A stretch of 64,000 nucleotides of DNA from positions 496,527 to 560,526 of the forward strand of contig BPJG01000001.1 of assembly GCA_026004495.1 (NCBI GenBank). Reading direction: 5' to 3'. Positions within the stretch are counted from its first letter, which is position 1, and the number at the start of each line of letters is the position of its first letter. Below the pieces are notes generated by a model that had not been told where the DNA came from, ran no database searches, and saw nothing but the letters and a program-made list of their open reading frames with translations. Below, one piece after another: positions 224 through 52,442 of the stretch. Origin of the DNA: Candidatus Parcubacteria bacterium. GTDB lineage: Bacteria; Patescibacteriota; Minisyncoccia; UBA6257; HR35. A program made the translations under genes and the position numbers.

Positions 224-994
224 TTATTTATTTTTTGTTTCTAGGAATATCTTGATGCCATTAGCAATCCCTTGAGCTATTTTATCTTGGTTATTAATTA
301 GTAAATTTAGGTCATTCTGATTATTAATATTACCCATTTCAATAATAACCGCAGGAGTTTTGGGATGAATAGTTCTTTTAAATCTAGACCAATTAAAGGC
401 ATAATAATGAGTCATATTAGTAGTTACTTTGTCGATAAATTGTAAACCTGTTGAACTTGAATATTCTTTAATTAATATAGATTTTAATTTTTTAGCTAAA
501 CCTGAATAATCTTTGAATGGAGTACTTACCATAAAACCACTAGTAAATTTATCAGCTTTATTAGAATGAAGAGATATAAAAACACTTGCATAATAATCTT
601 GGGGAATAATAGCAGGTAAAATTGTAATTTTTTCGTAACCATATTGCTGTAAAATTTCTTTAATTCTATAAGCTATATTTTTATTTATATCTACTTCTTT
701 TATTTCATTAACAATTGCTCCTACCTTAGATACCTTTCTTAATTCAAACGGTAATTGATTTTCTTCTATAAAATGACCTATCTGAATAGCTATTTCAGTA
801 TTTGTTGGTTCTATAAAGTTATCAAAATCTGGAAAACGAAAATATAGAGCTTTTTTTGAAAACTCAGGATAGGGTTGATAATAAATTTCTGAAAGAATAT
901 CAAAAAATTGATTTTCGTTAATAAATTGATAATTATTTAAGGTCAATAATAAGATAAAAATAGTAATTAAATCATCTAAATTTTTAACTAACAT
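224..994 (-). CDS. N-acetylmuramoyl-L-alanine amidase (Amidase_3 family)-like cell-wall hydrolase with an N-terminal membrane anchor
   Basis: 256 aa. Hydrophobic N-terminus, then the Amidase_3-like pattern IAIQIGH...SLHSNKAD...AVIIEMGNINNQND, which matches the GHGG / SIH-N / E-GF-N spacing of MurNAc-LAA enzymes. Confidence 0.5.
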   Translation of the reverse strand: MLVKNLDDLITIFILLLTLNNYQFINENQFFDILSEIYYQPYPEFSKKALYFRFPDFDNFIEPTNTEIAIQIGHFIEENQLPFELRKVSKVGAIVNEIKEVDINKNIAYRIKEILQQYGYEKITILPAIIPQDYYASVFISLHSNKADKFTSGFMVSTPFKDYSGLAKKLKSILIKEYSSSTGLQFIDKVTTNMTHYYAFNWSRFKRTIHPKTPAVIIEMGNINNQNDLNLLINNQDKIAQGIANGIKIFLETKNK

Positions 995-1055
995 TTTTTA
1001 TGAAATCATATTTATTTAATATAATATAATATAAATTAATAAAATAATAAATATT

Positions 1056-1499
1056 ATGATTTATTTAGCTTCTGACCATCGCGGTTTTAAACTTAAAGAA
1101 ATTATAAAAAATAAACTTATAAAAAATAAATTTAAATTTATAGATTTAGGTTATTATAATTATAATCCAAATGATGATTATCCCATAATAGCTTTTCAAT
1201 TGGCTAAAAATATTAAGGTAAGCAAAAAAAATAAAGGAATAATATTTTGTGGTTCGGGTATCGGAGTTTGTATAGCTGTTAATCGATTTAAGGGTATTAG
1301 AGCTGGCAGTTCTGATAATTATAAAATTATAAAAAAGGGTAGAGAAGATGATGATATAAATATACTTTGCTTACCTTCAGATTTTATTGATAATAAAAAA
1401 GCTTGGCTATTGATTAAGATATTTTTAAAAACTAAATTTAAAAATAAACAAAGATATATTAGAAGAATTAAACAATTAGATAATTATGATAAGTATTAA
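1056..1499 (+). CDS. rpiB: Ribose-5-phosphate isomerase B (RpiB/LacAB family)
   Basis: 147 aa. MIYLASDHRGF...CGSGIGVCIAVNRF is the RpiB signature. Confidence 0.8.
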   Translation: MIYLASDHRGFKLKEIIKNKLIKNKFKFIDLGYYNYNPNDDYPIIAFQLAKNIKVSKKNKGIIFCGSGIGVCIAVNRFKGIRAGSSDNYKIIKKGREDDDINILCLPSDFIDNKKAWLLIKIFLKTKFKNKQRYIRRIKQLDNYDKY

Positions 1500-1803
1500 T
1501 GATTTTTCTAAAATAGATTTAAGAGTGGCTAAAATTGAAAATGTCGAGCGAATTGACAATAGTAAATTTCTTAAGCTATATATCGATTTAGGTAGCGAAA
1601 AAAGAATTATAGTAGCTGGAATTGGAGAAAAATATCAACCAGAAGAATTATTAGGTCAATTAATTATAGTTGTTGTTAATTTAGAACCTAAAATAATTAA
1701 AGGAATTAAAAGCGAAGGCATGTTATTAGCGGTTGATGATGATAGAGGTCCGGTAATTATTGTTCCTTTAGAACAGGTTATAGTAGGTAGTAGGGTTAAA
1801 TAA
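1486..1803 (+). CDS. tRNA-binding domain protein (CsaA/Trbp111/MetRS C-terminal-like OB fold)
   Basis: 105 aa. DLRVAKIENVERIDNSKFLKLYIDLGSEKRIIVAGI...EGMLLAV matches the Myf/tRNA_bind domain. It overlaps rpiB by 14 nt. Confidence 0.7.
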   Translation: MISINDFSKIDLRVAKIENVERIDNSKFLKLYIDLGSEKRIIVAGIGEKYQPEELLGQLIIVVVNLEPKIIKGIKSEGMLLAVDDDRGPVIIVPLEQVIVGSRVK

Positions 1804-1816
1804 TATTTTTATAAAT

Positions 1817-2911
1817 TTATAATATCAATTCAGCTATTGCTATTTCTAGGGGTAAAGTTATTAAAGGAGGATCTTTTTTGAGTAATATTTCTGATTCAGA
1901 AAAAACTTTAATTAATTTTTTAACATCTTCTAATTCTAATTTATTGGCTAAATCTAAAATTTCTTCAATTAATTCTTGATTATATTCTTTGAGTAATTGA
2001 TTTTTCCATAAAGGATATATTTTTAAAACCAATAAATCTCTTAAAATCTTAATTAATGATCGATTAAAAATAATAAGATCATAGCCATTATTATAAATAT
2101 TATGAATTTCTTTGATAGATTCTTCGAATTTTTTATTTATTATTAGTTTTAAAAAATTTAATATTTTATTAGAACTTACTTTGCCCAAAAATTGTTCAAT
2201 ATGCTCTTCATTTATTATTTTTATGGGATTTAAGCTAAGTATTATTCTTTCAAATAAAGTTTCGGCATCTCTTAAGGCACCTTCTGATTCTTCGGCAATT
2301 AAATAAAGAGCACCTTCTGTAATTTGAACATTTTCCTTTTCAGCTATTTTTTTTAATTTTTTAGTAATATCTATCAGAGAAATTCTTTTAAAATCAAATC
2401 TTTGGAGCCTAGATAGAACTGTAGTCGGAATCTTTTCCGGTTCAGTTGTAGCTAATATAAATATCGTATGCTTAGGTGGTTCTTCTAATATTTTCAAAAG
2501 TGCATTAAACGCTTCCTTAGTTAACATATGGGCTTCATCAATTATAAAAATTTTATATTTTCCTTGAATTGGCCTGAAACCAATATTTTCTTTTAAATTT
2601 CTTATTTCATCGATACCCCTATTAGAAGCAGCATCTAATTCTATGATGTCTAAAAATTTATTTTCGTTTATAGCTTGACAATTTTGACAATTATTACAAG
2701 GTTCATAATTATTTTCTTCTAAGGCTAAACAATTTAAAGCCTTAGCAAATATTCTAGCAGTTGATGTTTTACCAGTTCCTCTTTGGCCAGTAAAAATATA
2801 TCCTTGAGGTAAAAAATTTATATTTTTAAGAAAGCTTTTTAGAATTTTAATTATTAAATCTTGTCCATAAATTTCATTAAAATTTTTGGGACGATATTTT
2901 CTATAAATCAT
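1817..2911 (-). CDS. dnaX: DNA polymerase III gamma/tau subunit (short form)
   Basis: 364 aa. Walker A GQRGTGKTSTAR, zinc module CNNCQNCQAI, IIDEAHML and an SRC-like SRLQRF motif. Confidence 0.8.
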   Translation of the reverse strand: MIYRKYRPKNFNEIYGQDLIIKILKSFLKNINFLPQGYIFTGQRGTGKTSTARIFAKALNCLALEENNYEPCNNCQNCQAINENKFLDIIELDAASNRGIDEIRNLKENIGFRPIQGKYKIFIIDEAHMLTKEAFNALLKILEEPPKHTIFILATTEPEKIPTTVLSRLQRFDFKRISLIDITKKLKKIAEKENVQITEGALYLIAEESEGALRDAETLFERIILSLNPIKIINEEHIEQFLGKVSSNKILNFLKLIINKKFEESIKEIHNIYNNGYDLIIFNRSLIKILRDLLVLKIYPLWKNQLLKEYNQELIEEILDLANKLELEDVKKLIKVFSESEILLKKDPPLITLPLEIAIAELIL

Positions 2912-2923
2912 TATTAAAATTAA

Positions 2924-4057
2924 TTAGACTGAATCTTTTATTTTTAAAATAATGTTATTATTTTTTAATCTTTCTAAAGCTTTAATTTCTAACTGTCGTA
3001 CTCTTTCACGAGTAATACCAAATATTTTACCCACCTCTTCTAAGGTATACATTGAACCATCTTTTAAACCATATCTTAACATAATAATTTCTTTTTCTCG
3101 TGGAGGTAGTGTTTCAATAGCTTGCATTAATTTACTTTTTAATATTTCTAAAGAAGCTTCTTTTTGAGGAGTAGTATATTTATCATCTTTTAATAAATTA
3201 CCTAATTCTGTATCTTTATCTTCTCCTATAGGTTTTTCTAAAGAAGTAACATCGTGTGTTAATTTTAAAAGTCGATGTATTTTCTTTTCAGGTATATTAG
3301 CCTCTCTAGCTAATTCTTCCGGAGTAGGTTCTCTTCCTAATTCTTCTACTAATCTTTTTTTTATCTTATTTAATCTATATAGTTGTTCAATAATATGAAC
3401 TGGCAATCTTACAGTTCGAGCATAATCAGCCATTGCTCTTGTTATTGCTTGACGAATCCACCAAGTAGCATAAGTAGAAAGTTTAAATCCCTTTTTGGGG
3501 TTAAATCTATCAATTGCTTTAGCTAAACCCAAGTTTCCTTCTTGAATTAAGTCTAAAAAAGATAATTTTTTGCTTCTACCGTAGTACTTTTTGGCTATAC
3601 TAAAGACTAATCTTAAATTAGTTTTAATTAATCTTTCTCTAGCTTCTAAATCTCCTTTAGCAGCTTTTTTGGTTAATTCTTTTTCCTCTTCAACTGAAAG
3701 TAATGGAATTTTATTTATTTCCATTAAATATTGTTGAATATGAGTAGGTAAATCTTCTGAACCTGTAATATCTAAATTTTTAATCAATTCATCGGTTTCT
3801 GCTGATTCATTTAAATCCCATAATTCTCCACTATTTTGAATTTCAATACCAGCAGTTTCTAATTTTTCAGCTATATCTTCTAATAAATCTATATTATTTT
3901 CTATATTAGGGAAATAATATAAAATTTCTTTTTCAGTAACAAAACCTCTCTTTTTTCCTTTATTTATTAATTCTTTAATTTTTTCCTCTGTTAATAATTC
4001 CTTTTCTTTTATTTTTCTTTTTTTTATTTTTTTCTGTTTTTTCTTTTTGGAAATCAT
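2924..4057 (-). CDS. rpoD: RNA polymerase sigma-70 (primary sigma factor)
   Basis: 377 aa. Regions 2-4 are recognisable: [40 protein letters not shown] and a region-4 [23 protein letters not shown]. Confidence 0.85.
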
Positions 4058-4060
4058 TAT

Positions 4061-5719
4061 TTATTGATTTTTTTCAAGTTCTCTTAATTTATCAGTTAAT
4101 AATTTTACTTCAGATAAAATATTTTCCGCATTACTTCCTTTAATAAGATTTCTATACTCTTTTATTTTTTTTCTATAAAATTCTTTTTTTATTTCTTTTT
4201 CTAAGAAATATAATTCTTTTTCAAAATCAATATTTAATTCTTTTTCATAATTAATCCTTAAATTTATTATTTCTTTGTAATATTCGTCATTTAAAAATTT
4301 ATCCTTTAAATAGTTATATTCATTTAAGCACTCTTCAATAGTTTTTATTTTTTCTTGAATATTCAAAATTGATACAAAAGTTAAATATCTTTCAATTAAA
4401 TTTTCTAATCTTTCATTATAATTGTCAATAGGAATTGATATATAGCTATTTTCTTGATAAAAATTATTATAAACTATTTTATCAAGCTCATTTAGTTCTT
4501 TAAGAAGAAATTCCTCTTTTAATTCTAAAATTTTAGATATTTGAGAAATATAATAACCTTGTTTTATATTATCTAATTGTTTAATTAGAGGTAAAACTAA
4601 ATCTAAAGTTTGCCTTTTGCCTTCTAGGTTAGTAATATTATAATTATCTAAACAATAATTTATAATATAATCGATAAAGGGAATTTTTTTTATTTGATTA
4701 AGATTGTAATTAGAGTTAAAAAAGTCTGCTAAATCTTTAGCTTGCTCAAAATTTAATTTCCATACTTCTAATTTATTTCCCATTAACATTAAGGCGCTTT
4801 TCCAAGAACTTTTAAATCCAGCTTCATCATTATCAAAAGCTAAAATAAAATTTTTAGCATATGTTTTTAAAATATTTACCTGATCTTGAGTAAAAGCTGA
4901 GCCTGAAACAGCAACTATATTTTGCAAACCATTTTGGTAAGCTAACAAGAAATCAAACTGTCCCTCGACTATAATTATTTCTTTAATTTTTTCAATTTCT
5001 GATAAAGAATAGACTAATCCATATAAAAATTTTGATTTTTTAAAAATTTTATTTTCAGCAGTATTTAAATATTTAGGACCATATTTAACTTCTGGATATA
5101 ATCTTCCCGTAAAGCCAACCAATCTTTTTTTATGATCAATTAAGGGAAAGATTATTCTTCCTTGAAATTTATCTTCATTTTTTTCATTTAAAAGTCCAGC
5201 TTCTTTTATAAGATCCAAATTGTAGCCTAAATTAAATAGATAATCTCTTAAATATGAACCTCTTTCGGCATAACCTAAATCAAATTTTTCTATAGTTTCT
5301 TTTGTTAATCCTCGTTGAGTTAAATAATTGATAACACTAGGATTGTTAATAAGATTTTTCTTAAAAAAATTTAAAGCAATTCTATTTATTTCTAATAATT
5401 TTTTATTTTGAGATAAATTATCACTATTTTCTAAATATTTTAAATCAATATTTAATTTTTGAGCTAAATTATTAATTGCTTCTTTAAAGCTTAAATTTTC
5501 TGTTCTCATATAGAAAGTAACGACATCTCCAGCAATATTACAACCGAAACATTTGAATATTTGTTTTTGGGGAGAAACGAAAAATGAAGGATTTTTCTCT
5601 TGATGAAAGGGACAAAGTCCTTTATAATAATTACCTGCCTTTTTTAATTCAACATAATTGCTAATAAATTCGACTATATCAAGTTTTTCTTTAATTTCTT
5701 GTAAAATTTGTTGATTCAT
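4061..5719 (-). CDS. dnaG: DNA primase
   Basis: 552 aa. Zinc-binding CPFHQEKNPSF...CFGC, then a TOPRIM core EGQFDFL...DNDEAG. It sits directly downstream of rpoD in a macromolecular-synthesis-operon-like order. Confidence 0.8.
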   Translation of the reverse strand: MNQQILQEIKEKLDIVEFISNYVELKKAGNYYKGLCPFHQEKNPSFFVSPQKQIFKCFGCNIAGDVVTFYMRTENLSFKEAINNLAQKLNIDLKYLENSDNLSQNKKLLEINRIALNFFKKNLINNPSVINYLTQRGLTKETIEKFDLGYAERGSYLRDYLFNLGYNLDLIKEAGLLNEKNEDKFQGRIIFPLIDHKKRLVGFTGRLYPEVKYGPKYLNTAENKIFKKSKFLYGLVYSLSEIEKIKEIIIVEGQFDFLLAYQNGLQNIVAVSGSAFTQDQVNILKTYAKNFILAFDNDEAGFKSSWKSALMLMGNKLEVWKLNFEQAKDLADFFNSNYNLNQIKKIPFIDYIINYCLDNYNITNLEGKRQTLDLVLPLIKQLDNIKQGYYISQISKILELKEEFLLKELNELDKIVYNNFYQENSYISIPIDNYNERLENLIERYLTFVSILNIQEKIKTIEECLNEYNYLKDKFLNDEYYKEIINLRINYEKELNIDFEKELYFLEKEIKKEFYRKKIKEYRNLIKGSNAENILSEVKLLTDKLRELEKNQ

Positions 5720-5817
5720 AATTATTGAATATATATTTAGTTAACTTATTTATAACTTCATAAAAAATTATTCTTTTAAATGATTAATTTTACAAAATTT
5801 TATGTTAAAATTTAATA

Positions 5818-6189
5818 ATGGTAAAAAAACAAAAAAAAATAATAGAAAAAGAAATAATAGAATTAGATGTAGCCAATTTATCTTTGGGAAGATTAGCTGT
5901 TTTAATCTCATATTATTTACAAGGGAAACACAGAGTTGACTATAAGCCTTATATAGATTTTCCGGTATTTGTGAATTTAAAAAATTGGGATAAAATAAAA
6001 TTTACCGGTAATAAATTGGATAGTAAATATATATATAAACATACAGGTTATTGGGGTCATTTGAAAAAATATTCATTTAAAGAATTATGGGATAAAAAAC
6101 CTTTGTTTATTATAAGAAAAGCAATTAGCGGAATGTTGCCTAAAAATAAATTAAGAAAAAAAAGATTATTAAGGATTAATTTAGTTTAA
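5818..6189 (+). CDS. rplM: 50S ribosomal protein L13
   Basis: 123 aa. LGRLAV...LQGKH...YKHTGYWG matches L13. rpsI follows, as usual. Confidence 0.85.
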   Translation: MVKKQKKIIEKEIIELDVANLSLGRLAVLISYYLQGKHRVDYKPYIDFPVFVNLKNWDKIKFTGNKLDSKYIYKHTGYWGHLKKYSFKELWDKKPLFIIRKAISGMLPKNKLRKKRLLRINLV

Positions 6190-6198
6190 AAAATAACA

Positions 6199-6747
6199 AT
6201 GGAAAAAAATTTTTCATCTTTAGAATTAGAAGAAGAAATAAAAGAAATTAAAAATATAAATCAAGAAGAGGAAGAAAACATTCAAAAGGATGATATTGAT
6301 ATTTCTGAAGATATTGTTGATATTCCTTCTATTGGTAAAAATAAATATACTGAAGCAATTGGCAGGAGAAAAAGAGCTATTGCAAGAGTTAGAATTTTTG
6401 ATAATTTAGATAGAAAGGACAAAACAGAAATAATAATAAACATTAATAATAAAAATTATGAAGATTATTTTCAGTCTGTAAATTTAAAAAAAATAGCTGA
6501 TGCTCCGCTTAGAAAATTAAAAATTTTTGGTTTTTACAAAATTATTGTTAAGGTCAAGGGTGGAGGCCTAAGAGGCCAAGCAGATGCGATAAAGTTAGGT
6601 ATAGCTAGAGGTTTGGTTAAAATAAATCCAGAATGGAGATTAAAACTTAAAAAAAGTGGTCTTCTAACTCGTGATCCACGAAAAAAAGAAAGAAAAAAAT
6701 ATGGTTTGAAAAAGGCAAGAAAAGCTCCTCAATGGCATAAGCGTTAG
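6199..6747 (+). CDS. rpsI: 30S ribosomal protein S9 with an acidic N-terminal extension of about 50 aa
   Basis: 182 aa. The C-terminal 130 aa carry GRRKRAIARVRIF...GGGLRGQADAIKLGIARGL...KKYGLKKARKAPQWHKR. The N-terminal extension is rich in E, D and I. Confidence 0.85.
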   Translation: MEKNFSSLELEEEIKEIKNINQEEEENIQKDDIDISEDIVDIPSIGKNKYTEAIGRRKRAIARVRIFDNLDRKDKTEIIININNKNYEDYFQSVNLKKIADAPLRKLKIFGFYKIIVKVKGGGLRGQADAIKLGIARGLVKINPEWRLKLKKSGLLTRDPRKKERKKYGLKKARKAPQWHKR

Positions 6748-6751
6748 TTAA

Positions 6752-7801
6752 ATGAAAATAGATACTCAATTATTTTTCTTAATATTAATATTAAGCTTAG
6801 TAGGTTTATATTTTTTTTACGGTGTTTCTTTACCTTATTCAACTAAAATTTTTAATAATCCACTCTATTATTTTAAGAAATTTTTAATATTTAATTTTTT
6901 TCTCCCCTTATTAATGTTTTTTATAGGCTATTTTATGAATTGGCTATTCTTGATGAGGATCGCTAAAATTATTTTTATTGTAAATATTATTTTCCTTATT
7001 CTACCTTTTTTTGATTTTTTTAAACTTCCCAATCAATCTACAGCTAGATGGTTTTATTTAAAAGGAATTTCTTTCCAGCCTTCAGAGTTTATGAAATTAT
7101 CATTACTTTTATTTTTAACCTCAACCTTGCCTTTAATCAAAAAAAATTTAAGTTATTTTTATATTTCTTTAATAATTATTTTTCTTACTTCTTTAATAAT
7201 ATTTATTCAACCAGCTTTAAGTACTCTTCTAATTATTTTAACTAGTACTATGGGTGCTTTAATTACAATTAATTTTAAACTTAAAAATTTTTTTATTTTT
7301 TCAATAATCTTGTTATTTTTTATACTTGCTGGTTTTTTATGGAATTATCGCTTAGAAAGAGTAACTGGAATTTTTATAAGCAATGATAAAGGATTATCTT
7401 TTCAGTTAAATCAAAGTAGATTAGCTATTGGTTCAGGGGGATTGTTAGGCAAGGGTTTAGGTAATTCAGATTTAAAATTAATAGGCTTGCCTTTGATGAT
7501 TAGCGATAACATTTTTTCTGTTTACGCTGAAGAAACTGGTTTCATAGGTTCAATTATTCTTATTATTTTATTTGTTTATTTAATTTTTAGAATAATTTAT
7601 TTAGGATATTATAATAACAATGAGCTTAAGAAGTTTTTTTCTTATGGAGTAGCTTGTTGGTTATCTATCCAAGTTTTTGTTCATTTGATGGCTAATTTAA
7701 CTATTTCCACCGGAGTTCCATTGCCATTTTTTAGCTATGGTCCTTCAAGTCAAATAGCAATTATGACAGCCTTAGGAATTATTAGTGGATTTAAAAAATA
7801 A
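6752..7801 (+). CDS. ftsW: SEDS-family peptidoglycan glycosyltransferase (FtsW/RodA)
   Basis: 349 aa polytopic membrane protein. GSGGLLGKGLGNS...YAEETGFIGS matches the FtsW/RodA core. murG is immediately downstream. Confidence 0.7.
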   Translation: MKIDTQLFFLILILSLVGLYFFYGVSLPYSTKIFNNPLYYFKKFLIFNFFLPLLMFFIGYFMNWLFLMRIAKIIFIVNIIFLILPFFDFFKLPNQSTARWFYLKGISFQPSEFMKLSLLLFLTSTLPLIKKNLSYFYISLIIIFLTSLIIFIQPALSTLLIILTSTMGALITINFKLKNFFIFSIILLFFILAGFLWNYRLERVTGIFISNDKGLSFQLNQSRLAIGSGGLLGKGLGNSDLKLIGLPLMISDNIFSVYAEETGFIGSIILIILFVYLIFRIIYLGYYNNNELKKFFSYGVACWLSIQVFVHLMANLTISTGVPLPFFSYGPSSQIAIMTALGIISGFKK

Positions 7802-7803
7802 AA

Positions 7804-8943
7804 ATGGAAGAAATTAGAATTTGTTTAACTGGTGGATCAACAGGAGGTCATTTTTTCCCTTTGCTTTTTGTATCTAAAAAATTTAAACAAGAAATGATTA
7901 AAAGAAATTGGAATTATAGGATTTTTTACGTTGGAGCTCCGCCATTTGATGAAGAATTAATGAAAAAAGAAGGTATTGAAATATTTAAAATTCCATCGGG
8001 GAAGTTAAGAAAATATTTTGATATCAGAAATTTTATTGATATTTTAAAATTTCCTTTAGGATTTTTAATAGCTTTTTTTAGGCTTTATATTATAATGCCT
8101 GAAATAATATTTTCTAAGGGAGGTTTTGGTAGTTTAGAAGTTGTTTTGGCGGGTTGGTTATTGAGAATTCCTATTATAATTCATGAATCGGATTCTATTC
8201 CTGGAAGAAGTAATATTTTAGCTGGTAAATTAGCTACCTTAGTAGGTCTTAATTTTGAAGAAGCAAAGAATTTTTTTAATCCTAAAAAAACTGCTATAAT
8301 TGGTCAACCTTTAAATTCAGACTTTATCAATATTAAGCCAAAATTGGAAGATTATGAAAGGTTTAATTTAAATCCAGGTGAAAAAATAATATTAGTTTTA
8401 GGTGGATCTCAAGGATCGCAAAAAATTAATGAAACTATTATTTTTGGTTTAAATAAAATTTTAACTGTAACTCAAGTTGTTCATCAATTAGGTAAAAATA
8501 TGTTTGATGAATATTATCAAGTAGCTGATGGTTTCATTTTAGAAAATGTTCCAATGAGAAAAAGTTTATATCATCCCGTACCCTTCTTAAAAAATGATGA
8601 TTTAATTAAATTAATGAAAATGTCTAATTTAGTTATTGCTAGAGCTGGAGCGGGAACTATTTTTGAATTAGCTGCTTGTGGTGTACCTGCTATTTTAATT
8701 CCTTTAAGAAAAGATGTAGGTGGAGAACATCAAATAAAGAATGCCTATAGTTATGCCTATGCGGGAGCTGCGATAGTTATTGAAGAACAAAATTTATTCC
8801 CCGATTTATTGGCAACAATAATTATAAATACCTTAAAAGACGAAAAATTGTTAAAAGAAATGAGTGAAAATGCTAAAAATTTTGCTAAAATTGAAGCAAC
8901 GGATAAAATAGTTAAACAAATGATAATTTTTTTAAATAAATAA
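7804..8943 (+). CDS. murG: UDP-N-acetylglucosamine--N-acetylmuramyl-(pentapeptide) pyrophosphoryl-undecaprenol GlcNAc transferase
   Basis: 379 aa. N-terminal GGSTGGHFFP and C-terminal ARAGAGTIFELAACGVPAILIP...E match MurG (GT28). Confidence 0.8.
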   Translation: MEEIRICLTGGSTGGHFFPLLFVSKKFKQEMIKRNWNYRIFYVGAPPFDEELMKKEGIEIFKIPSGKLRKYFDIRNFIDILKFPLGFLIAFFRLYIIMPEIIFSKGGFGSLEVVLAGWLLRIPIIIHESDSIPGRSNILAGKLATLVGLNFEEAKNFFNPKKTAIIGQPLNSDFINIKPKLEDYERFNLNPGEKIILVLGGSQGSQKINETIIFGLNKILTVTQVVHQLGKNMFDEYYQVADGFILENVPMRKSLYHPVPFLKNDDLIKLMKMSNLVIARAGAGTIFELAACGVPAILIPLRKDVGGEHQIKNAYSYAYAGAAIVIEEQNLFPDLLATIIINTLKDEKLLKEMSENAKNFAKIEATDKIVKQMIIFLNK

Positions 8944-8944
8944 A

Positions 8945-9253
8945 ATGAAAAACAAGTTAGATTTATATTTCGATTTAATAATTATCTTAATTATTTGGTT
9001 AAGTTGGTTATTTGTGATTGATTTAATCCAGGTTAATCAAGTTATTTTTTATTATAAATATTATCCTGAAAAAATAATTTTATCAACTAAAGATATATTA
9101 TATATTTTCCCTATTGCTTTAACTATTTTTATAGTTTATAATTTTATTTTAAGGTTTTTTATTCTAAAAAATAAGATTTTGGATATAGTAAATTTTTTAA
9201 TAATTATATTTAATTTTTTAATTTTAATTAAATTAATTTATTTAAATTTTTAA
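8945..9253 (+). CDS. Small hydrophobic membrane protein (hypothetical)
   Basis: 102 aa with three predicted TM segments. It starts 1 nt after the murG stop. AT-rich genomes generate ORFs of this kind easily. Confidence 0.3.
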   Translation: MKNKLDLYFDLIIILIIWLSWLFVIDLIQVNQVIFYYKYYPEKIILSTKDILYIFPIALTIFIVYNFILRFFILKNKILDIVNFLIIIFNFLILIKLIYLNF

Positions 9254-9264
9254 TAAATCAAATT

Positions 9265-9567
9265 ATGATAGCAATAATTGAAACAGGAGGCAAGCAATAT
9301 TTAATTAAAGAAGGTAGTATTATAACTACTAATAAAATTGAGGGTGAAGAAATAATTTTTGATAAAGTTTTGCTTTTTTATGATGATAAAAAGCTTTTAA
9401 TAGGCAAACCCTATCTTAATAGTATTTATGTTAAGGGTAGAATACTTAAGCAGATTAAAAACAAAATTCATGTTATAAAATTTAAACCTAAAACTCGTTA
9501 TAAGAAAAAAATAGGATATAAAAATTATTTTTCTCAAATTAGAATAGAAGAAATTAACTTTTCTTAA
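9265..9567 (+). CDS. rplU: 50S ribosomal protein L21
   Basis: 100 aa. MIAIIETGGKQY...KFKPKTRYKKKIGY matches L21. No rpmA follows it. Confidence 0.85.
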   Translation: MIAIIETGGKQYLIKEGSIITTNKIEGEEIIFDKVLLFYDDKKLLIGKPYLNSIYVKGRILKQIKNKIHVIKFKPKTRYKKKIGYKNYFSQIRIEEINFS

Positions 9568-10096
9568 AATATCTTTTAACAATATAATCAGGTAGAATTC
9601 CTAATTTAAAATATTTTATTTTAATTTTTGGGGGCAAAAATCTAAATTCTCTTATTTTTTTTCGACAAATTTTTGAACCACAATTACATTTTATTGACCA
9701 AGAATCTTTATACATTGTTGTTGAATAATCATAAGTTATTTCCTCTCCCTGTTTTATATTTTTTAAAGCTATTAAAATAACCTTGTTGCCATTGATATAA
9801 ACATAAGAATTTGGATCGCAAGAATGATTTATAAAATCATCATATATTTTTTTATTTTTACCCGTACCAACAATAAATATATCTTCATCAATTTGAATAG
9901 AGTAATCATCAATTATTTTTTTTATTTTTTTGCTTTTTATTTTATTAAAATGATCTCGTGAAATTATTTTACCTATAAATTCTAAAATAATATCATTTTT
10001 TTTAAAATCTTTCTTTGCAAATAAACCCAAGCCATTATTACTCTTTTTTACTTCAAGATTTTTGTAAAATTCTTTATTAAAATTTATTATTTTCAT
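9554..10096 (-). CDS. SET-domain protein (putative protein-lysine methyltransferase)
   Basis: 180 aa. GLGLFA (GxG), NHSCDPN, EEITYDY and a post-SET-like CNCGSKICRKK Cys cluster. It overlaps the 3' end of the reverse gyrase gene by 20 nt on the same strand. Confidence 0.7.
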   Translation of the reverse strand: MKIINFNKEFYKNLEVKKSNNGLGLFAKKDFKKNDIILEFIGKIISRDHFNKIKSKKIKKIIDDYSIQIDEDIFIVGTGKNKKIYDDFINHSCDPNSYVYINGNKVILIALKNIKQGEEITYDYSTTMYKDSWSIKCNCGSKICRKKIREFRFLPPKIKIKYFKLGILPDYIVKRYFKKS

Positions 10097-13000
10097 TTAA
10101 AAATAATCTCTTAAATAATATTGCTAAAATATCTTGATAGTTTAATTGTTTTTTTTCAATGGCATCCATCTTTTTTTCTAATTCTTTAGTAAAATTTTCA
10201 TTTATTATATCAGAAAATGATGAATTTAGGTAGTTATAAATATTTTTACCTTGATTAGTAGGTATAAGATATCCCTTTTTGATTATGATATATCTTCGTT
10301 CAATTAATGTTTGGATAATACTCGAGTAAGTAGATGGTCTACCTAAATTTTCTTTTTTCATTTTATCAATTATTGAAGCATTGGTATAAAGTAATTCTTT
10401 AGAAAATCTATTAATTTTTAAATCATTAATAACAAATTCACCTGGTTGAATTTTAAATGGATAAATATAAGAATATATTTCATTAAAACCATTTTCAATT
10501 ATTTCTGTTATTACTTCTTTTTCATCTTCAATTAAAACTTTGTTTTCAGATATTAATTTAAATGATATTAATGTCTTTTTTATTTTTATCGCTTTACATT
10601 GTGATGCTATAAATCTTTTTAAAATTATACTATATAATTTTAAATGTTTATTAGAAAATAATTCATTTTGGTTAATAATAGACTGTTCAATAACTTCCTC
10701 AACAGATAAAGCTTTTGTTGGCCTGATACATTCATGCGTTCCTGGTTTTCCCCAACTTCTTTTTTGACTTAAATGAAGCTTATCTTTTTTATTAAGAAAT
10801 TCATAAGCTATTTCTTTACCTAAATTAGATACATAAGTTGAATCAGTTCGATGATAAGTTATTAAACCTCTTTCGAATAAATCTTGAGCTAAGGACATAG
10901 TTGTTGGTAGATCAAATTTAAGTAAATCCCACGAATATTTTAATAAATCACTTGTTTGAAATGGGGGTGGGGGACTAACAATTTCTATCTTAGATTTTAA
11001 AAATTGAATTCTAACTAATAAGTTATTTTTTAATTTTCTAATTTTTTTTACTAAATCAATATTTTCAGTTTGTATATCATAATACTGGTTACCGAAGAAA
11101 AATCTAATTGAATAAATTTTATTTACTCTTCTTTCTAATTCTCTACTAATAATCCAACCTAAAACAGGAGTTTGAACCCTGCCTGCAGATAAATTTAAGT
11201 TTTTAAATTCTTTTTGTATTTTTTCACTTAAAGAAAAACCTATCCAACGATCAGCAATTCTTCTTGTTATTTGAGCACAAACTAAATCTAAGTTTAATTT
11301 TCTTGGTTGTTTAAATCTTCTTAAAAATTCCTCTTTAGTAATTTCATGAAGTTCAATTCTTTTAATATTTTTATTATAGGGATATAGATAGATAAATAAA
11401 TCAAAAGCAATTTTTTCTCCTTCAGTATCTGGGTCAGTAGCTAAATATATTTCTTGAACATTATTAGCTAAATTTTTTAAGATTTCAATTAAAAATTCTT
11501 TATTCAAAAAATTATTATTATTACAAATAGGACAGATATTATCATCAATATCTATATGACGTTGACAATTCAAACATATTTTTAATGGCTCAAATATTGG
11601 TAAAAATTCTTGGTTATCTTTTTTTATTCCATAATAACCCTCTTTATAAACCAAATCGACAAAATGTCCTAAGGTAGCAATAATATTGATTAAATAATTT
11701 CCTAAACTTACTTCATATACCCAAAAATTACGATATATTTTTTTAGCAGGTTTACCAAAAAAATTAGCAATTGTTTTAGCTTTGGTTGGAGATTCAACTA
11801 TTATTAACGCAGTTTTAACTTGATCTTTGGGTAATATTTTTTCTTCCGTTATTATCTTTTTTATCAATTCTCGATCTTTATCAACAAGTTCAATAGTTTT
11901 TTTAAATTCTTCTTTGCATTCTTTGATATTCATAAAATTTATTTTGTAGCCTATTAATTTCAGTTTATTTTTTAAATTATCAAAAATTTTTTTATCTTCA
12001 ACTAATAAAATACTTAATCCTTGGGTTAATCCAAGAGGGAATAATCTTGATGTTCTACCTGAAGCCTGAATATAACCCTTAGGATCAGAAATTAAAAGAA
12101 AAAATTTATCATTTTCTTTAATTACTTTTAAATTTTTATCTTTTTCTATTTTTTCGAAGAAATTTTTATCTTGGAATAATTTTCTTAATTTGTTTTGTAT
12201 TAATTCAATTTTGTTCTTTAAATTTTGATTTCTTAAAATACTTTCTTCGTTTAAAAAACTATATTTTTTTAAAAATTTTATGTCTTTAAAAAGATTATTA
12301 TCTTCTAAATATTGTTGAAAAGTTAAAATCATCATTAATAAAATTCTAGGTGTGTAAGTTATGGTTAGTGGTATTTTAAATTTAGGTATCCCTAGAAAGA
12401 TAGCATAGCGAATAACATGAGGTAAATCTATTCCTCTGGTTAATGGATTTCGAACATTTGAAAAACCAACGACAACATCGATTTCACCATTTTCAAATAA
12501 TTTTATATTTTTAGAATTAAATTTTTCATAGGATATAAATTTAATATTATTTTTTTTTAAATAATTAAAATATTTAAGTAAATCTTCTTTATTAAAATCA
12601 TCAGCCAAGAATACAAAACCTCCTTTTTTTAAATATTTTAGCCATTCAATTGATTTTTTAAATAATTTATCTTTTGAATTTACTTTATCATAGAAATCTA
12701 CAATATTTCTTAAATAAGTATTAGAATTTCCTATTTCAAAATTTAATAGTTCTCTAAATAAATTAATCCTTTTTGTTCTAGGAGTAAGAGTAGCAGAAGC
12801 TATAATAATTTTTCCTTTATTTGATAAATTAATATTTTCCTTAAGTTTTTCGCTCAATTGGTAATCCTTTTTTCTTTTTGAATCTATTATTTTTATTGTC
12901 ATCTCAATATCATTATTGCTGAAACCAATTAGTTGTAAAACTTTATCAATGTTTCTAGGTTGTCTTATCATTGAATCAGCATCGTCAATATAAACTAAAT

Positions 13001-47923: not shown

Positions 47924-48007
47924 TTTTAATTTTTATTTATAACTTTTAAGTATCAATAAAGAATAATAATCGACCAGTATATTTTTTTAATATATAAAAT
48001 AAAAAGA

Positions 48008-48030
48008 CCGGCTTTTGTGCCGGCTTCTTT
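48008..48030 (-). terminator. GC hairpin (CCGGC-ttttgt-GCCGG) with flanking A/T runs; best read as a minus-strand intrinsic terminator
   Basis: On the minus strand the hairpin is followed directly by TCTTTTTATTTT. It could stop leftward transcription leaving the foreign trpS island. Confidence 0.4.
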
Positions 48031-48497
48031 AGATATTTTTTAAGATAACTAATTATGCCGGCACTCTTCCGATTCTTAATAATAAATTAATAATTAAAAA
48101 TAAATTCCAATTTTTTATAATCTCACTTTTCATTATTGTGAAAAATTTTAAATTAAAAAAAATTTTTGTCAAGAGTTTTAACTATTAAAGTAAATGTTAA
48201 TAATGATTTTGAATTTTAAACCGACAATGGAAATTAATATTTTCTCTTTTAGGTTATTTATTAATTAAAGTTATTTCATTAAAATTATTTTTTAATATTT
48301 ATATTATTTTTTGTAATTTAATCTTTTCTTTTATTTTATTTTTTAAACCAGTTTTAAAAGGTGAAACTATTGGGATGATTTTAATTGCTTTATTTATGAT
48401 AATTTTTTATTATTTTTTGGGATTTAATTGTTTATCATAATTAAAAAATTTTTTTATGTTTATAAGTTAACATTATTAAAAAAAATTTTTTTTGGAT

Positions 48498-48721
48498 TAA
48501 AATGGCGGTATCTTTTGGACAAAATCCGAACCTATTTTGAACAAAATCCCGATGCCGAAATCTAACCTGTGCGTCCGCCTTCGGCGGACGCACACCCACC
48601 CACCGCCCAAAACGAGCAAGCGGACAAAAATTTCCCCCCAGATTCTCCCTTGTCTGCTAGTTGAATGATTGAATTAAACTTGGCAAAATTTTATTATAAT
48701 AAATATAACAATAATAAAGTT
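48498..48721. repeat. IR1-L: left copy of a 224-bp inverted repeat, about 98% identical to IR1-R
   Basis: Its reverse complement matches 50174-50397 with 3 mismatches by manual alignment. About 50% GC. It contains a perfect palindromic hairpin GTGCGTCCGCC-TTC-GGCGGACGCAC at 48569-48593 and, at its inner end, a truncated copy (MIELNLAKFYYNKYNNNKVVAEKID*) of the N-terminus of the 68-aa HTH ORF. Confidence 0.85.
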
Positions 48722-48905
48722 GTGGCGGAAAAAATAGATTGATAGCGTCTCTCATTCTATAAATTTCAGGTGCAGTATTAAAACATTACCTAAATCAATA
48801 TCATGGAAAAATGGAGCAAAACTTTGTAATTCTTTTGGTATTTTTTGCTTCTTCATGGTTTTTTAAAAAAGAAATGCTGGAGTTGTTGAAATAACCCCAC
48901 CCCGT

Positions 48906-49973
48906 TTAATCGAATCGCAGGACTTTCCTGACTTCGCTAAGGGTTTCGATGGCGTTTTCTCTAGCCACCTTAGCCCCCTCTTCCAGGGCGGAAGAAATGT
49001 ACGACGGGTCGTGCAAAATCTCAGCCCTCTTCTCCTGAAACTCACTGAGGAAGTTCTGAACGATGCGAGTCAGAATTTGTTTAAACTGACCCATTACTGG
49101 TTTGCCACTCTTATGTTCCTGGATAACGGCATCCACCTCATCGCGTTCCGATTGGGTTTTTGCCAGCCCCTTGGCAATTAAGATATGGCTTTCCAGTTTC
49201 TCGTTCATTACTCCCTCAAATGCAGTCTCAGCGGCTTTGATCTTGTTGGCAACCGTCTTTAGGTCATCCGTCAGGAAAATAGCACCGCCAGGATTACTTT
49301 TGCTCATCTTGCCCTTTCCTCTCAGGGCAAGAATACGTAGCGACTTAACCTGCAACACCTGAGGAATTGGAAAAATCTCCCCGTACTTCTTGTTGAACCT
49401 GCGAGCGAGGAGACGCGTAACCTCCATGTGTGCGAGCTGATCTTCTCCCACCGGTACCCTTTTGGCTCTGTTCAACAAGATGTCAGCAGCCATTAGTACC
49501 GGATAAAGAAGAAGGAGGGCATTAGCAGTTTCCGGCCGTGCGTTGTTCTTGAGCTTATCCTTGAGAGTCGGTACTCTCAAGAGTTCAGCCACAGAAACAA
49601 GCCTAGACAGAATCGCGGTAAGCGTTGTTACCTCTCCCGCTATATCCGATTGGAGATAGATCTTCGCTTTCTGCGGATCAACTCCAAGCGCGATGTAGTC
49701 AGCTACGACTCCGTGGATGTACTGCCTCACAGTATCCGGTTCGTTGTCCGTGATCGCGTGCAAATCGGCAACGAACACAACCGGAGACACGCCCTGTGTT
49801 TGAAGTTCAACAATGGGAGCTACTGCCCCCAGGTAGTTGGCGACGGTCAAGTCGCCAGTGGGCCTGATGCCCGTCAGTAACTCAACCTTGTAATCCATGG
49901 TAGACGCCTCCTTTTTTAGGGTACTATCCATACTATAATCCTTTTTCCATTTTTTGCCAAGATCATATGTCAT
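48906..49973 (-). CDS. trpS: Tryptophanyl-tRNA synthetase, compositionally foreign (about 50% GC by eye)
   Basis: Class-I aaRS. TGDLTVANYLGA is a HIGH-region variant typical of TrpRS, and KMSKS is present. The likely true start is the internal MDYK Met near 49898, which has a GGAGG RBS 8 nt upstream, giving about 331 aa. The gene is far more GC-rich than anything around it. Confidence 0.85.
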   Translation of the reverse strand: MTYDLGKKWKKDYSMDSTLKKEASTMDYKVELLTGIRPTGDLTVANYLGAVAPIVELQTQGVSPVVFVADLHAITDNEPDTVRQYIHGVVADYIALGVDPQKAKIYLQSDIAGEVTTLTAILSRLVSVAELLRVPTLKDKLKNNARPETANALLLLYPVLMAADILLNRAKRVPVGEDQLAHMEVTRLLARRFNKKYGEIFPIPQVLQVKSLRILALRGKGKMSKSNPGGAIFLTDDLKTVANKIKAAETAFEGVMNEKLESHILIAKGLAKTQSERDEVDAVIQEHKSGKPVMGQFKQILTRIVQNFLSEFQEKRAEILHDPSYISSALEEGAKVARENAIETLSEVRKVLRFD

Positions 49974-50023
49974 ATCTATTTTTGTTTGATTACACTAATA
50001 ACGACCGTGTCTTTTATGTCTAA

Positions 50024-50230
50024 TTATATTCTAAACGTTGGCCTAAAAGGTTTTAATATACCCTTAACATCATAACATCTCAAAACCATACTGGAAACTC
50101 CGAATATTTTGGATACCTGTTTTATTGTCAGTAATTCTGGGAATCTTTCTGATTCCATAATCGCTTGCTCTAAAACTTTATTATTTTTATATTTATTATA
50201 ATAAAATTTTGCCAAGTTTAATTCAACCAT
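50024..50230 (-). CDS. Excisionase/AlpA-like (MerR-superfamily HTH_17) small DNA-binding protein
   Basis: 68 aa. LTIKQVSKIFGVSSMVLRCYDVKGIL fits the Xis/AlpA HTH. Its first roughly 55 nt lie inside IR1-R, and a truncated inverted copy lies in IR1-L. Confidence 0.5.
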   Translation of the reverse strand: MVELNLAKFYYNKYKNNKVLEQAIMESERFPELLTIKQVSKIFGVSSMVLRCYDVKGILKPFRPTFRI

Positions 50231-50397
50231 TCAACTAGCAGACAAGGGAGAATCTGGGGGGAAATTTTTGTCCGCTTGCTCGTTTTGGGCGGTGGGTGGG
50301 TGTGCGTCCGCCGAAGGCGGACGCATAGGTTAGATTTCGGCATCGGGATTTTATTCAAAAAAGGTTCGGATTTTGTCCAAAAGATACCGCCATTTTA
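50174..50397. repeat. IR1-R: right copy of the 224-bp inverted repeat
   Basis: See IR1-L. Its outer end is ...CCGCCATTTTA, the inverted att-like 11-mer. Confidence 0.85.
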
Positions 50398-50521
50398 CGA
50401 TTTCAGAGCTTTGAGAAGTTCTTGCCTCGCCTTCGCTTCGCTCGGGCTCGGCAAAAGCCACGATTTTATACGGATTTTTGAAATAAAAAAAACAATTTCT
50501 GCCCGCTCAAAAGAAAGTTCG
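50387..50521. repeat. IR2-L: left copy of a 135-bp inverted repeat, about 95% identical to IR2-R
   Basis: Its reverse complement matches 52001-52135. It is GC-rich (CTCGCCTTCGCTTCGCTCGGGCTCGGC). It begins with the same CCGCCATTTTACGATTTC terminus that ends IR1-R, so the two IR systems abut and share 11 nt. Confidence 0.8.
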
Positions 50522-50620
50522 CCGTGCGAAGCACGGGCAAAATAAAATTTTGCAAAACAATCTTTTTTCTCTCGCTTCTGGCGAAAAGCAAAGCGATAAT
50601 TTAATTTTGGTAAAACAAAT

Positions 50621-52056
50621 ATGACAAAAGAAAATTCAAAAAGAAAATTTTTCATTTATGTCCGCAAGTCAACTGACTCAGAAGACAGACAAGTAAGAAG
50701 TATTCAGGACCAAATTGCGGAACTCAAGGAATTGGGGAAAAAAGGAAAATTTAGAAATCGTTGATATTTTGATTGAAAAACAAACCGCTAAAATTCCCGG
50801 AAGGCCAGTTTTTAATGAAATGCTGAAAAGAATTCAATCAGGCGAAGCGTCTGGATCCTGACCGGCTTGCTCGTAATTCTATTGACGACGGGCAAATTAT
50901 TTATCTTTTGGATACCGAAATTATCAAAGAGTTAAAATTTCCTACTTTTTGGTTTGAGAATACGCCACAAGGAAAGTTTATGTTATCTATCGCTTTTGGC
51001 CAATCAAAATACTATATTGATAATCTTTCAGAAAATATCAAAAGGGGACATCGGCAAAAATTAAAACAAGGTTTATGGCCCCAAATGGCGCCTCTTGGTT
51101 ATCTCAACGATACAAAAACAAAACAAATTTATGTTGATAAAGAAAAAGCACCGCTTATTAAAAAGGCGTTTGAACTTTACGCTACTGGAAAATATACCTT
51201 GAAAGAAATTAGAAAAATCATTAACGATTTGGGGTTGCGGGGAAGAAAAAATAAACCTCTTTCAACTTCAAATTGTTAATATCTTTTACAAAATCCTTTT
51301 TATTACGGAGTGATGAGATACAACGGCGAATACTACGAAGGAAGGCACGAACCGATTATTACAAAGAAACTTTTTGATGATGTTCAGGAAGTAATGAAAC
51401 AAAAATCAAAACCGCAAAAACCAGACAAAATGAAATTTTTTCTTTATCGCGGATTATTTCGTTGTGGAGAATGCAGTTATGCCATTACCGCGGACAGAAA
51501 AATCAAAAAGAGCGGGAAACAATACACCTATTACTATTGCACCAAGAAAAACCCAAATCATAAATGCTCGCAAAATGTTTTTACCAGAGAAGAAAAAATT
51601 TTATCCCAAATCAATGAAGTGCTACAAAAAGTTTCTTTATCTAATGATTGGGCTGATTGGATGATAAAAAAACTTGAAAGAGAAAAAGAAGAAAAAGTCC
51701 AATCATCACGCTTTTTTGCTCAAAAGATTGAAAGCGAAATAAAGGAGATTGACGAGAAGTTGGAAAAGTTAATGACTGCCTACCTTGAAAATGCTTTGTC
51801 TTTAGAATAATACCGAGAAACCAAAAATAAACTTATTAATCAAAAACAACTCCTGAAAGATAAACTAATCGCTTTTGAGCAAAAAAGCAATAATCGGTTC
51901 GAACTCGCCATAAAATTCATAAATTCCTTAAAACAAAGCCAGATTATCGCTTTGCAAGAAAATCACGAGCAAAGCCGGGATTTTCTAAAAAAGATTAGTT
52001 CGAACTTTCTTTTGAGCGGGCAGAAATTGTTTTTTTTATTTCAAAAATCCGTATAA
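50621..52056 (+). pseudogene. Large serine recombinase (resolvase domain, recombinase domain, zinc ribbon, coiled coil), disrupted
   Basis: N-terminus MTKENSKRKFFIYVRKSTDSEDRQVRSIQDQ with the catalytic Ser motif. One frameshift in an A6 run near 50738. A second indel near 50850, upstream of DRLARN. Two in-frame TAA stops, at 51277 (...STSNC*YLLQNPFYYG...) and 51808 (...LSLE*YRETKNKL...). CGECSYAITADRK...YYYCTKKN is the zinc ribbon. The last roughly 19 codons lie inside IR2-R. GC is intermediate between host and trpS. Confidence 0.65.
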
Positions 52057-52135
52057 AATCGTGGCTTCTGCCGAGCCCGAGCGAAGCGAGGGCGAGGCAA
52101 TACCTTCTCAAAATCATGAAATCGTAAAATGGCGG
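52001..52135. repeat. IR2-R: right copy of the 135-bp inverted repeat, abutting tRNA-Ser
   Basis: See IR2-L. It ends in TAAAATGGCGG, whose last 6 nt are the CCGCCA 3' end of tRNA-Ser on the minus strand. Confidence 0.8.
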
Positions 52136-52219
52136 AAGGGGTGGGATTCGAACCCACGAGGCCCCAGAAGAGGCCACGGCTCTCCAGGCCGTTCCGTTAA
52201 TCCACTCCGGCACCCTTCC
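52130..52219 (-). tRNA. tRNA-Ser (anticodon GGA) with a long variable arm and encoded CCA
   Basis: Folded by hand. Acceptor GGAAGGG/CCCTTCC, a 3-bp D-stem, anticodon stem ACGGC/GCCGT with loop CTGGAGA, variable arm GGCC-TCTTCTGG-GGCC, T-arm GTGGG-TTCGAAT-CCCAC, discriminator G plus CCA. Confidence 0.85.
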
Positions 52220-52442
52220 AAGATATACTAGAATAATAAGGCTAAATATTTAAAAAAATAAATTCATAATTATTAATTCATTAATTAAAATTTATTTTAT
52301 TATAATATTAGGATAATATAATTATAACAAATAAAACTACAAAGATAATTTTTTATATTAATTTATGAGCTATGAATAAATTTTTGATTAAAATTTATTT
52401 TTTTATTAAGAAGCATTTTAAAGCAAAAGCAAAAATTAAAAA

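Follow-up and report, generated by a model that had tools for sequence, protein, structure and literature searches.

The closest described systems to the locus analyzed here are the large serine integrases of phages, such as those of Listeria A118/LI, SPbeta (SprA), phiC31 and Bxb1. The locus lies in a stretch of 64,000 nucleotides (the window) of a Candidatus Parcubacteria bacterium (GenBank assembly GCA_026004495.1, contig BPJG01000001.1, positions 496,527 to 560,526), in which a large serine recombinase pseudogene starts at position 50621 and runs toward a tRNA-Ser(GGA) gene. We consider it, with a probability of roughly 0.87, to be the recombinase gene, now dead, of an integrative mini-element of 3.6 kb, which would have been inserted by a serine-integrase reaction between the attachment site of the element (attP) and that of the host (attB) at the CCA end of the tRNA gene. 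As in the phage integrases, resolvase domain, recombinase domain, zinc ribbon and coiled coil follow each other in this order, the core of the attachment sites is short, and a distal motif lies farther from the centre in attP than it does in attB, by 5 bp. The elements of this family differ from the phages in being about 3.6-7 kb long, in lacking phage genes and in targeting the CCA end and T arm of tRNA genes. Furthermore, the open reading frame (ORF) of the recombinase extends across attP, the elements always retain a second attP in inverted orientation, and no directionality factor was recognizable.

Single features of this arrangement are known from other systems. The SSV1-type integrases of Sulfolobus viruses are tyrosine recombinases with attP inside the integrase gene and a tRNA target, and integration splits the gene. 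The elements studied here are alike in the position of attP and in the tRNA target, but the exchange is limited to a tail of about 20 codons, and a spare copy is present in inverted orientation. The yeast 2-micron plasmid is an autonomous replicon with a tyrosine recombinase (Flp), in which inverted repeats carrying the recombination site (FRT) part two unique segments. As in this plasmid and in plastid-type flip-flop, two segments, one of them with the recombinase, lie between long inverted repeats here and both isomers were seen; unlike the 2-micron plasmid, the element is integrated and has no replication genes. The Hin, Gin, Cin and Pin invertases resemble the present enzyme in serine-recombinase chemistry and in inversion between inverted sites, the hin gene being itself inside the invertible segment. 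They are proteins of about 190 amino acids with a C-terminal helix-turn-helix (HTH), acting on 26-bp sites with a Fis enhancer, whereas the protein here has about 527 amino acids with a zinc ribbon and a coiled coil. A small serine DNA invertase of the Hin/Gin type was rejected as an identity for the window gene, since its intact relatives have 505-590 amino acids and carry recombinase, zinc-ribbon and coiled-coil domains. In mycobacteriophages with integration-dependent immunity, attP lies inside the ORF of the repressor, the integrase is of the tyrosine type and integration changes the C-terminus of the protein; here the altered ORF is that of the recombinase itself. Tycheposons and other tRNA-targeting cargo islands are reportedly small, insert at tRNA genes and occur in streamlined genomes, with different recombinases and hosts. 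We know of no double inverted-repeat architecture in tycheposons.

The gene from 50621 is a bona fide large serine recombinase gene and an ordinary pseudogene. The domains that a first-pass annotation had recognized from the letters alone were all recovered: the translation stitched across the lesions matched the Pfam families Resolvase (PF00239, E 8e-16), Recombinase (PF07508, E 3e-19) and Zn_ribbon_recom (PF13408, E 1e-9). The catalytic serine motif (Y-x-R-x-S-T...Q), invariant as YARKSTDSEDRQ across a ten-sequence alignment, reads YVRKSTDSEDRQ in the window, and the resolvase catalytic domain is broken downstream of it by a frameshift and a 14-nt deletion. The four-cysteine zinc ribbon is present as CGEC...YYYCTKKNPNHKC. 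Among sequences in PDB the A118/LI integrase was matched, with E 1e-10 to the C-terminal domain of the A118 integrase. Alignment of the full-length conceptual translation with large serine recombinases gave 90% amino acid identity to two intact metagenome proteins of 527 amino acids, P0001 and P0002. An AlphaFold2 model of P0001 (mean predicted local distance difference test score, pLDDT, 68) contained a coiled-coil hairpin at residues 346-449, formed by helices 346-393 and 399-449 with pLDDT mostly 81-89 over the block and dips to 67-70; this coiled coil was read from the model. The best Foldseek matches of the model were the SPbeta, LI, phiC31 and Bxb1 integrases, the SPbeta match being full-length (E 8e-17).

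Lesions were called by nucleotide alignment with the genes of P0001 and P0002 (loci L001 and L002), both of which are intact. Five frame-disrupting lesions were found in the window gene, all given here on the plus strand. The first is an additional nucleotide inside GGGGAAAAAAGG (50734..50745), a run of G and A. The second, between 50854 and 50855, is a 14-nt deletion (AATTTTAGCCTGGC) visible in both nucleotide and protein alignments, which takes out codons of GILAW, a near-invariant stretch of the catalytic domain. Two substitutions create stop codons, CAA to TAA (Gln to stop) at 51277..51279, where relatives have NYQYLL, and GAA to TAA (Glu to stop) at 51808..51810, where relatives have SLEEYR. 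In the fifth, TTTTTTGA became TTTTTTTTA (G>TT, net +1, 52030..52038). None of the shifts was common to any close relative. The frame changes near 50738 and 50850 and the in-frame TAA codons at 51277 and 51808 had been noted in the first-pass annotation and are present as described; its internal indel near 50850 is a frame change refined here to the 14-nt deletion. Its count of lesions was too low, the fifth having been missed, and 52056 is not the end of the gene.

From the ATG at 50621 the gene is read in frame 2, in frame 0 after GGGGAAAAAAGG and in frame 1 after about 50850; both TAA codons and the closing stop at 52054-52056 lie in frame 1. This closing stop is not the ancestral end because the fifth lesion shifts the frame. 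Intact relatives add about 50 codons through the attachment core, continuing as ...FFDFKNPYKIVA-AEPERSEGEA...NWR and further. The same continuation is kept out of frame in the window from 52061 to 52231, passing via the core TAAAATGGCGG (52125-52135) into the antisense strand of tRNA-Ser(GGA). The pseudogene is therefore annotated from the start codon to the core (50621..52135, plus strand), and the integrated ancestral ORF would reach 52231.

The island that contains this gene measures 3,638 bp (48498..52135) and was delimited by direct copies of the 11-nt core TAAAATGGCGG at both ends, by GC content (0.33-0.48 vs about 0.19-0.30 in the host, which is about 23% overall) and by its repeat structure. 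The core occurs three times, at 48498 (plus strand), 50387 (minus strand) and 52125 (plus strand), and two inverted-repeat pairs abut. The X/X' pair (48498..48730, plus strand, and 50165..50397, minus strand; 233 nt, 96% identity) encloses an HTH gene and a tryptophanyl-tRNA synthetase (TrpRS) gene, both on the minus strand. The Y/Y' pair (135 nt, 94% identity) encloses the recombinase: Y' (52001..52135, plus strand) is the 3' end of the recombinase gene and closes in the third core copy, and Y (50387..50521, minus strand) repeats the final 135 nt of the element-side recombinase sequence in inverted orientation. The three junctions were matched to each other by three-way identity, and their forms are those that attL, an intact attP and attR should have. 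The first (core copy A, 48498..48508, plus strand) joins host, core and X as a putative attL. The second (core copy B, 50387..50397, minus strand) joins Y', core and X in inverted orientation and appears to be an intact attP with attP-type spacing of the motif CGAAC. The third joins Y', core and tRNA as a putative attR. The tRNA-Ser(GGA) gene itself (52130..52219, minus strand) is intact according to ARAGORN and Rfam; its CCA end lies within the core, its T arm would form the B' half-site and CGAAC is found at +14.

An intact spare copy of the recombinase tail is present in the left X arm at 48503-48565 (...WRYLLDKIRTYFEQNPDAEI followed by a stop; tblastn with residues 508-527 of P0001). The copy in the X' arm, at the internal attP, has its own CAA to TAA change at about 50351-50353 (minus strand). 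Both X arms have a perfect GC hairpin of 12 bp just past the stop codon of the tail (48568-48594 and 50301-50327). A promoter and terminator scan also placed an inward-facing promoter-like site followed by ATG in each arm, at 48669-48697 (plus strand) and 50226-50198 (minus strand); the ORF from the ATG of the left arm has only 25 codons. In the Y arms, the derived G>TT change (T8/A8) of the fifth lesion is found in both copies, at 50485-50492 and 52030-52037; either the arms were homogenised after the mutation or the mutation is older than the last copying of the arms. The remaining mismatches between Y and Y' are gathered in about 35 nt beside the core.

The attachment sites were compared with those of relatives. 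In the 13 loci where all three junctions were available, the three-way identity of the core was 3-13 nt and lay at the discriminator and CCA end of the tRNA, which would fit a 2-nt serine-recombinase crossover that leaves the tRNA complete. CGAAC was found 19 nt from the core on the X side and 14 nt from it on the tRNA side, where it belongs to the T arm (GGATTCGAACC). An offset of 5 bp between the two sides was obtained in 18 of 22 loci by a first-match scan. Three of the four exceptions proved to be first-match artefacts, with 5 bp (4-5 in one case) when the outer CGAAC was taken by eye, and the remaining locus had 4; after this reading the 5-bp offset holds in about 21 of the 22, with a clear motif on the P'/B' side only. 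According to Rutherford et al. (PMC3783163), the zinc-ribbon motif of serine integrases lies 5 bp closer to the centre in attB than in attP. The offset found here matches this rule and gives independent support to the assignment of X as the P' arm and of the tRNA as the B' arm. The use of many tRNA species by the family is explained by the position of CGAAC in the T arm.

Outward of the internal junction, nearly all of the 22 loci continued the recombinase frame as W-R-x-L-L-D-E/K-I-R-T-F-F-x-x-N-P-D. The exceptions were the window copy, which is cut by TAA, and L008, in which the arm extends into a tRNA fragment. This peptide varied at synonymous sites (for example CGA/AGA and ATC/GTT). Among the best 120 homologs, 20 ended with the conserved tail and 62 with antisense-tRNA sequence such as WRRGRDSNPR. 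In the P0001 model the tail forms a separate predicted helix (505-521, pLDDT about 85), with the core codons NWR just before it. Because the ORF crosses attP, integration swaps this conserved C-terminal helix for an arbitrary antisense-tRNA sequence. Separate translation of the spare tail of the internal attP was judged unlikely, since the in-frame stretch has no start codon; the long antisense ORF upstream of the spare tail in L006 lies in another frame.

A scan of one genome per GTDB species returned more than 570 relatives, of which the majority belong to Patescibacteria and some to bins assigned to other phyla. The architecture was surveyed in 82 loci, 37 of them with full flanks. An inverted repeat around the recombinase was present in 58 of the 82, the right arm being the 3' end of the gene, with arms of 45-307 nt and a median identity of 100%. 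A tRNA gene on the opposite strand abutted the right arm in 25 of the 37 loci with full flanks, and over all loci the tRNAs were Ser (21), Ala (10), Asn (7), Gln (3), Glu, Leu and Val (one each). A second inverted-repeat pair abutting the first was found in 13 loci, where it encloses 1.6-5.2 kb of cargo. The order X, cargo, X', Y, recombinase, Y' and tRNA is the norm in the family, and the window holds a small example of it. Cargo genes in relatives included methyltransferases, restriction enzymes, defence ATPases, an enolase with CrcB and a seryl-tRNA synthetase (SerRS)-like gene. A phage or prophage integrase was rejected as an identity, since the island consists of the HTH gene, TrpRS and the recombinase only and the family is nearly absent from IMG/VR; a scan of the viral contigs there gave just four weak or partial relatives. 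In many loci, L003 and L030 among them, contigs begin or end inside the arms, and two whole contigs are bounded by inverted terminal repeats of 77 nt and 141 nt. The family is probably under-represented and fragmented in metagenome-assembled genomes (MAGs), because assemblers break at the arm repeats.

Evidence of activity was obtained from relatives. Loci L085 (ENA ERZ27257495) and L086 (ERZ27249271), from two samples of one project, have an identical recombinase (P0105) and 100% identical DNA, with the cargo (HTH, PLD/SNF2 helicase, MmeI-type methyltransferase and AAA_13 genes) in opposite orientations and the breakpoint at the inner edge of the X arm, a live polymorphism for inversion. The recombinase acting at the cores and homologous recombination within the arms would yield the same product, and either may have made it. 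Loci L097 and L098 share 3,330 nt at 100% identity and split exactly after GGCGG, one into a P'-type arm and the other into tRNA-Ser; the element of L098 is complete, has 3.6 kb and follows the logic of three junctions seen in the window. One 3.3-kb element joined to two partners exactly at the core is indirect evidence that the family recombinases may catalyse attP x attB recombination. In L006 (positions 489-11199 of the complete Parcubacteria genome AP024682.1), a single tRNA-Ser carries a chain of four segments bounded by inverted repeats; one recombinase in it is intact and runs into the X-type arm of the neighbouring element, and a second, decayed recombinase lies beside the tRNA. This chain would imply integration into attL- or attR-type sites, unlike canonical serine integrases. 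Another independently decayed copy was found in L016, in a host of 26% GC. Since L006 and L016 hold decayed copies and L006 chains segments, decay of resident copies is common and the elements stack. L001 (7680-9584) was the only surveyed locus in which tRNA-Ser abuts the upstream arm; its recombinase points away from the tRNA, reads into X and keeps the tail.

These observations suggest the following history. The free form of the element would be a circle in which two inverted attP sites lie between the cargo segment and the recombinase segment. In working relatives the recombinase ORF is written across attP, with the last 20 codons or so (the predicted helix WRxLLDxIRTFFxxNPD) beyond the crossover, and a second inverted attP with a spare 3' end of the gene is kept directly upstream of the recombinase in every element. 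Integration via the attP downstream of the recombinase would give the layout of the window; that of L001, with the tail kept, would result if the other attP were used or if the recombinase segment flipped. Before insertion, the site in this host is predicted to have read ...GGATTAAAATGGCGG directly joined to AAGGGGTGGGATTCGAACC. The island would now be fixed in place because its mobility parts (recombinase, spare tail and HTH gene) have decayed and the TrpRS cargo is intact; selection may have kept TrpRS, and the tail and spare attP may likewise have had a function.

The alternative that survives best, and that we still regard as unlikely, is a resident invertible (phase-variation) locus in which the recombinase would be a dedicated invertase flipping the TrpRS or the recombinase segment. 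Long inverted repeats do bound both segments, and the cargo of a relative was found in both orientations. However, the junctions read as attL, attP and attR, their core of 3-13 nt lies at the end of the tRNA, and the P' and B' motifs are offset by 5 bp. The GC content of the island is foreign to the host, and near-identical recombinases and cargo occur in many lineages and at seven kinds of tRNA. One element joined to two different partners exactly at the core also speaks against it. Moreover, the same inward promoter-like site is present in both arms, so a flip would leave expression unchanged.

The inactivation of the enzyme that once mobilised or inverted the island was recent, as the first-pass annotation had supposed: relatives 90% identical to it are intact, relatives integrate and invert, and the ratio of nonsynonymous to synonymous changes is still far below the neutral one. 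Changes specific to the window lineage comprised 11 nonsynonymous substitutions and 2 stops against 18 synonymous ones, small counts, and the three closest intact relatives had nonsynonymous to synonymous counts of 3:15, 3:13 and 5:13 (pooled 11:41 vs 13:18 in the window, Fisher p=0.05). The direction of substitution was GC>AT in 20 and AT>GC in 7 cases in the window, compared to 18:26 in the pooled relatives (p=0.008), these counts being small as well. The bias to AT appears to reflect drift of the gene toward its 23%-GC host, and the window lineage shows signs, within the limits of small counts, of relaxed constraint.

It is very unlikely that the gene is intact and active and that its disruptions are sequencing or assembly errors, a possibility which the first-pass annotation had left open for the homopolymer shift. 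Two of the five lesions do lie in homopolymer-rich runs. However, a 14-nt deletion and two TAA-creating substitutions are unlike homopolymer errors, two further disruptions occur in neighbouring parts of the element (the spare tail and the HTH gene), and the AT-biased excess of substitutions is peculiar to the window lineage. In the host part of the window 91.9% of the bases are inside uninterrupted ORFs of at least 120 amino acids, and 478 homopolymer runs in host ORFs are unbroken, compared to 2 indels in 14 runs of the recombinase gene.

We give hardly any credence to a chimeric assembly or binning artefact in which the DNA of another organism was joined to the host. The jump in GC from about 23% to 48% and the position of many relatives at contig ends might suggest one. 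Against this, the 11-nt core is duplicated and the junctions coincide precisely with the CCA end of the tRNA, the same architecture occurs inside complete genomes such as AP024682 and CP055308, and the recombinase copy has drifted toward the AT richness of the host; arm identities of 94-96% rather than 100% also speak against a duplication made by the assembler. Reading of TAA as sense, by stop reassignment or in a recoded foreign gene, or programmed frameshifting, can practically be dismissed: good recombinase sequence does resume in frame past each TAA, but TAA closes 40 of the 52 long ORFs of the window, that of the cargo TrpRS included (the host use of TAA as a stop had been noted at first pass), relatives carry ordinary CAA and GAA codons in ORFs that themselves close with TAA, the 14 nt for the conserved GILAW are gone, no close relative has any of the shifts, and translation tables 4 and 25 gave little extra.

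Several points weigh against the proposed insertion and death of a mini-element at tRNA-Ser(GGA). The empty tRNA-Ser site was not found in metagenome scans with a 25-mer (left host flank plus core) and with an IUPAC pattern of the filled or empty site, and exact-protein look-up of the ZnuA-like protein and TrpRS in the contig index did not find a second assembly of the host. A search of 25 complete short contigs for circular family members was negative, with direct terminal repeats in none of them, so the circle with two attP sites is a deduction; two of these contigs had inverted terminal repeats, typical of assembly breaks at inverted-repeat arms. The two 1-nt indels were read from the assembled sequence. 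L001 and L002, which are among the relatives with intact genes, also have diverged arms, and arm divergence thus tracks decay imperfectly. The nonsynonymous excess is borderline. Finally, the view is that of a 64-kb window in a contig of 634 kb, and a second TrpRS or an intact recombinase may exist elsewhere in the genome.

The element is apparently an undescribed variant of a serine-integrase element; no description of the architecture was found in the searchable library, including work on horizontal gene transfer in Patescibacteria, which is no proof of novelty. More tentatively, and with the odds rather against it, the family may form a class of Patescibacteria mini-elements, undescribed and very common, that themselves encode a switch between states. 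Integration would replace the C-terminal helix, inversion of the recombinase segment via the spare attP would restore the full-length enzyme, and the enzyme would toggle between full-length and tail-less forms without a separate directionality factor, with cargo that flips by way of the same repeats and new elements that stack onto old ones. That the tail and the spare attP act as a switch between enzyme states is speculative. The small HTH_17 gene was considered as a universal excisionase or directionality factor and rejected, since it travels only with TrpRS cargo. The layout of an ORF across attP offers a testable idea for control of directionality without a separate factor. The family moves restriction-modification, defence and housekeeping genes (TrpRS, enolase, SerRS-like) between Patescibacteria. 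Among these bacteria, which have few plasmids and seldom conjugate, it could be a main way in which genes are exchanged. With a universal target, the T arm and CCA end, and attachment sites readable from genomes, its recombinases are attractive candidates for integrase tools.

Between the GTP cyclohydrolase-like gene and the island lies an unusually long (about 575 nt) AT-rich non-coding stretch (47924-48497) with a GC hairpin at about 48006-48030, where no Rfam family was matched. An Rfam search over 46-56 kb of the window gave two tRNAs and nothing else.

The cargo consists of an intact tryptophan--tRNA ligase gene of 48% GC (48906..49973, minus strand) and a small MerR/HTH_17-like gene upstream of it (50024..50230, minus strand). 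The former matched Pfam tRNA-synt_1b (E 8e-56) and TIGR00233 trpS (264.7 bits vs a cutoff of 176.75), and its product is 100% identical to GIW66013.1 from a Candidatus Parcubacteria MAG. With the horizontally acquired TrpRS locked in while its vehicle decays, the locus shows concretely, at one moment, how a gene is domesticated in a reduced Parcubacteria genome. Matches of the small gene to Pfam were weak (MerR_1, 22.3 bits vs a cutoff of 21.6; MerR below cutoff). DNA alignment revealed a 1-nt deletion in it, which removes the C-terminal third compared to the intact 60-amino-acid HTH_17 homolog in L083. TrpRS had more than 100 homologs with identities of 75-90%, and most of these lay on short contigs assigned to many lineages. 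The two loci inspected among them, L083 and L084, have the same small HTH_17 gene upstream, and the pair looks like a mobile TrpRS module. The conserved RRW of the small protein is now RCY in the window, and the L084 copy looks damaged too. In both L083 and L084 a second tRNA-synt_1b gene is located nearby.

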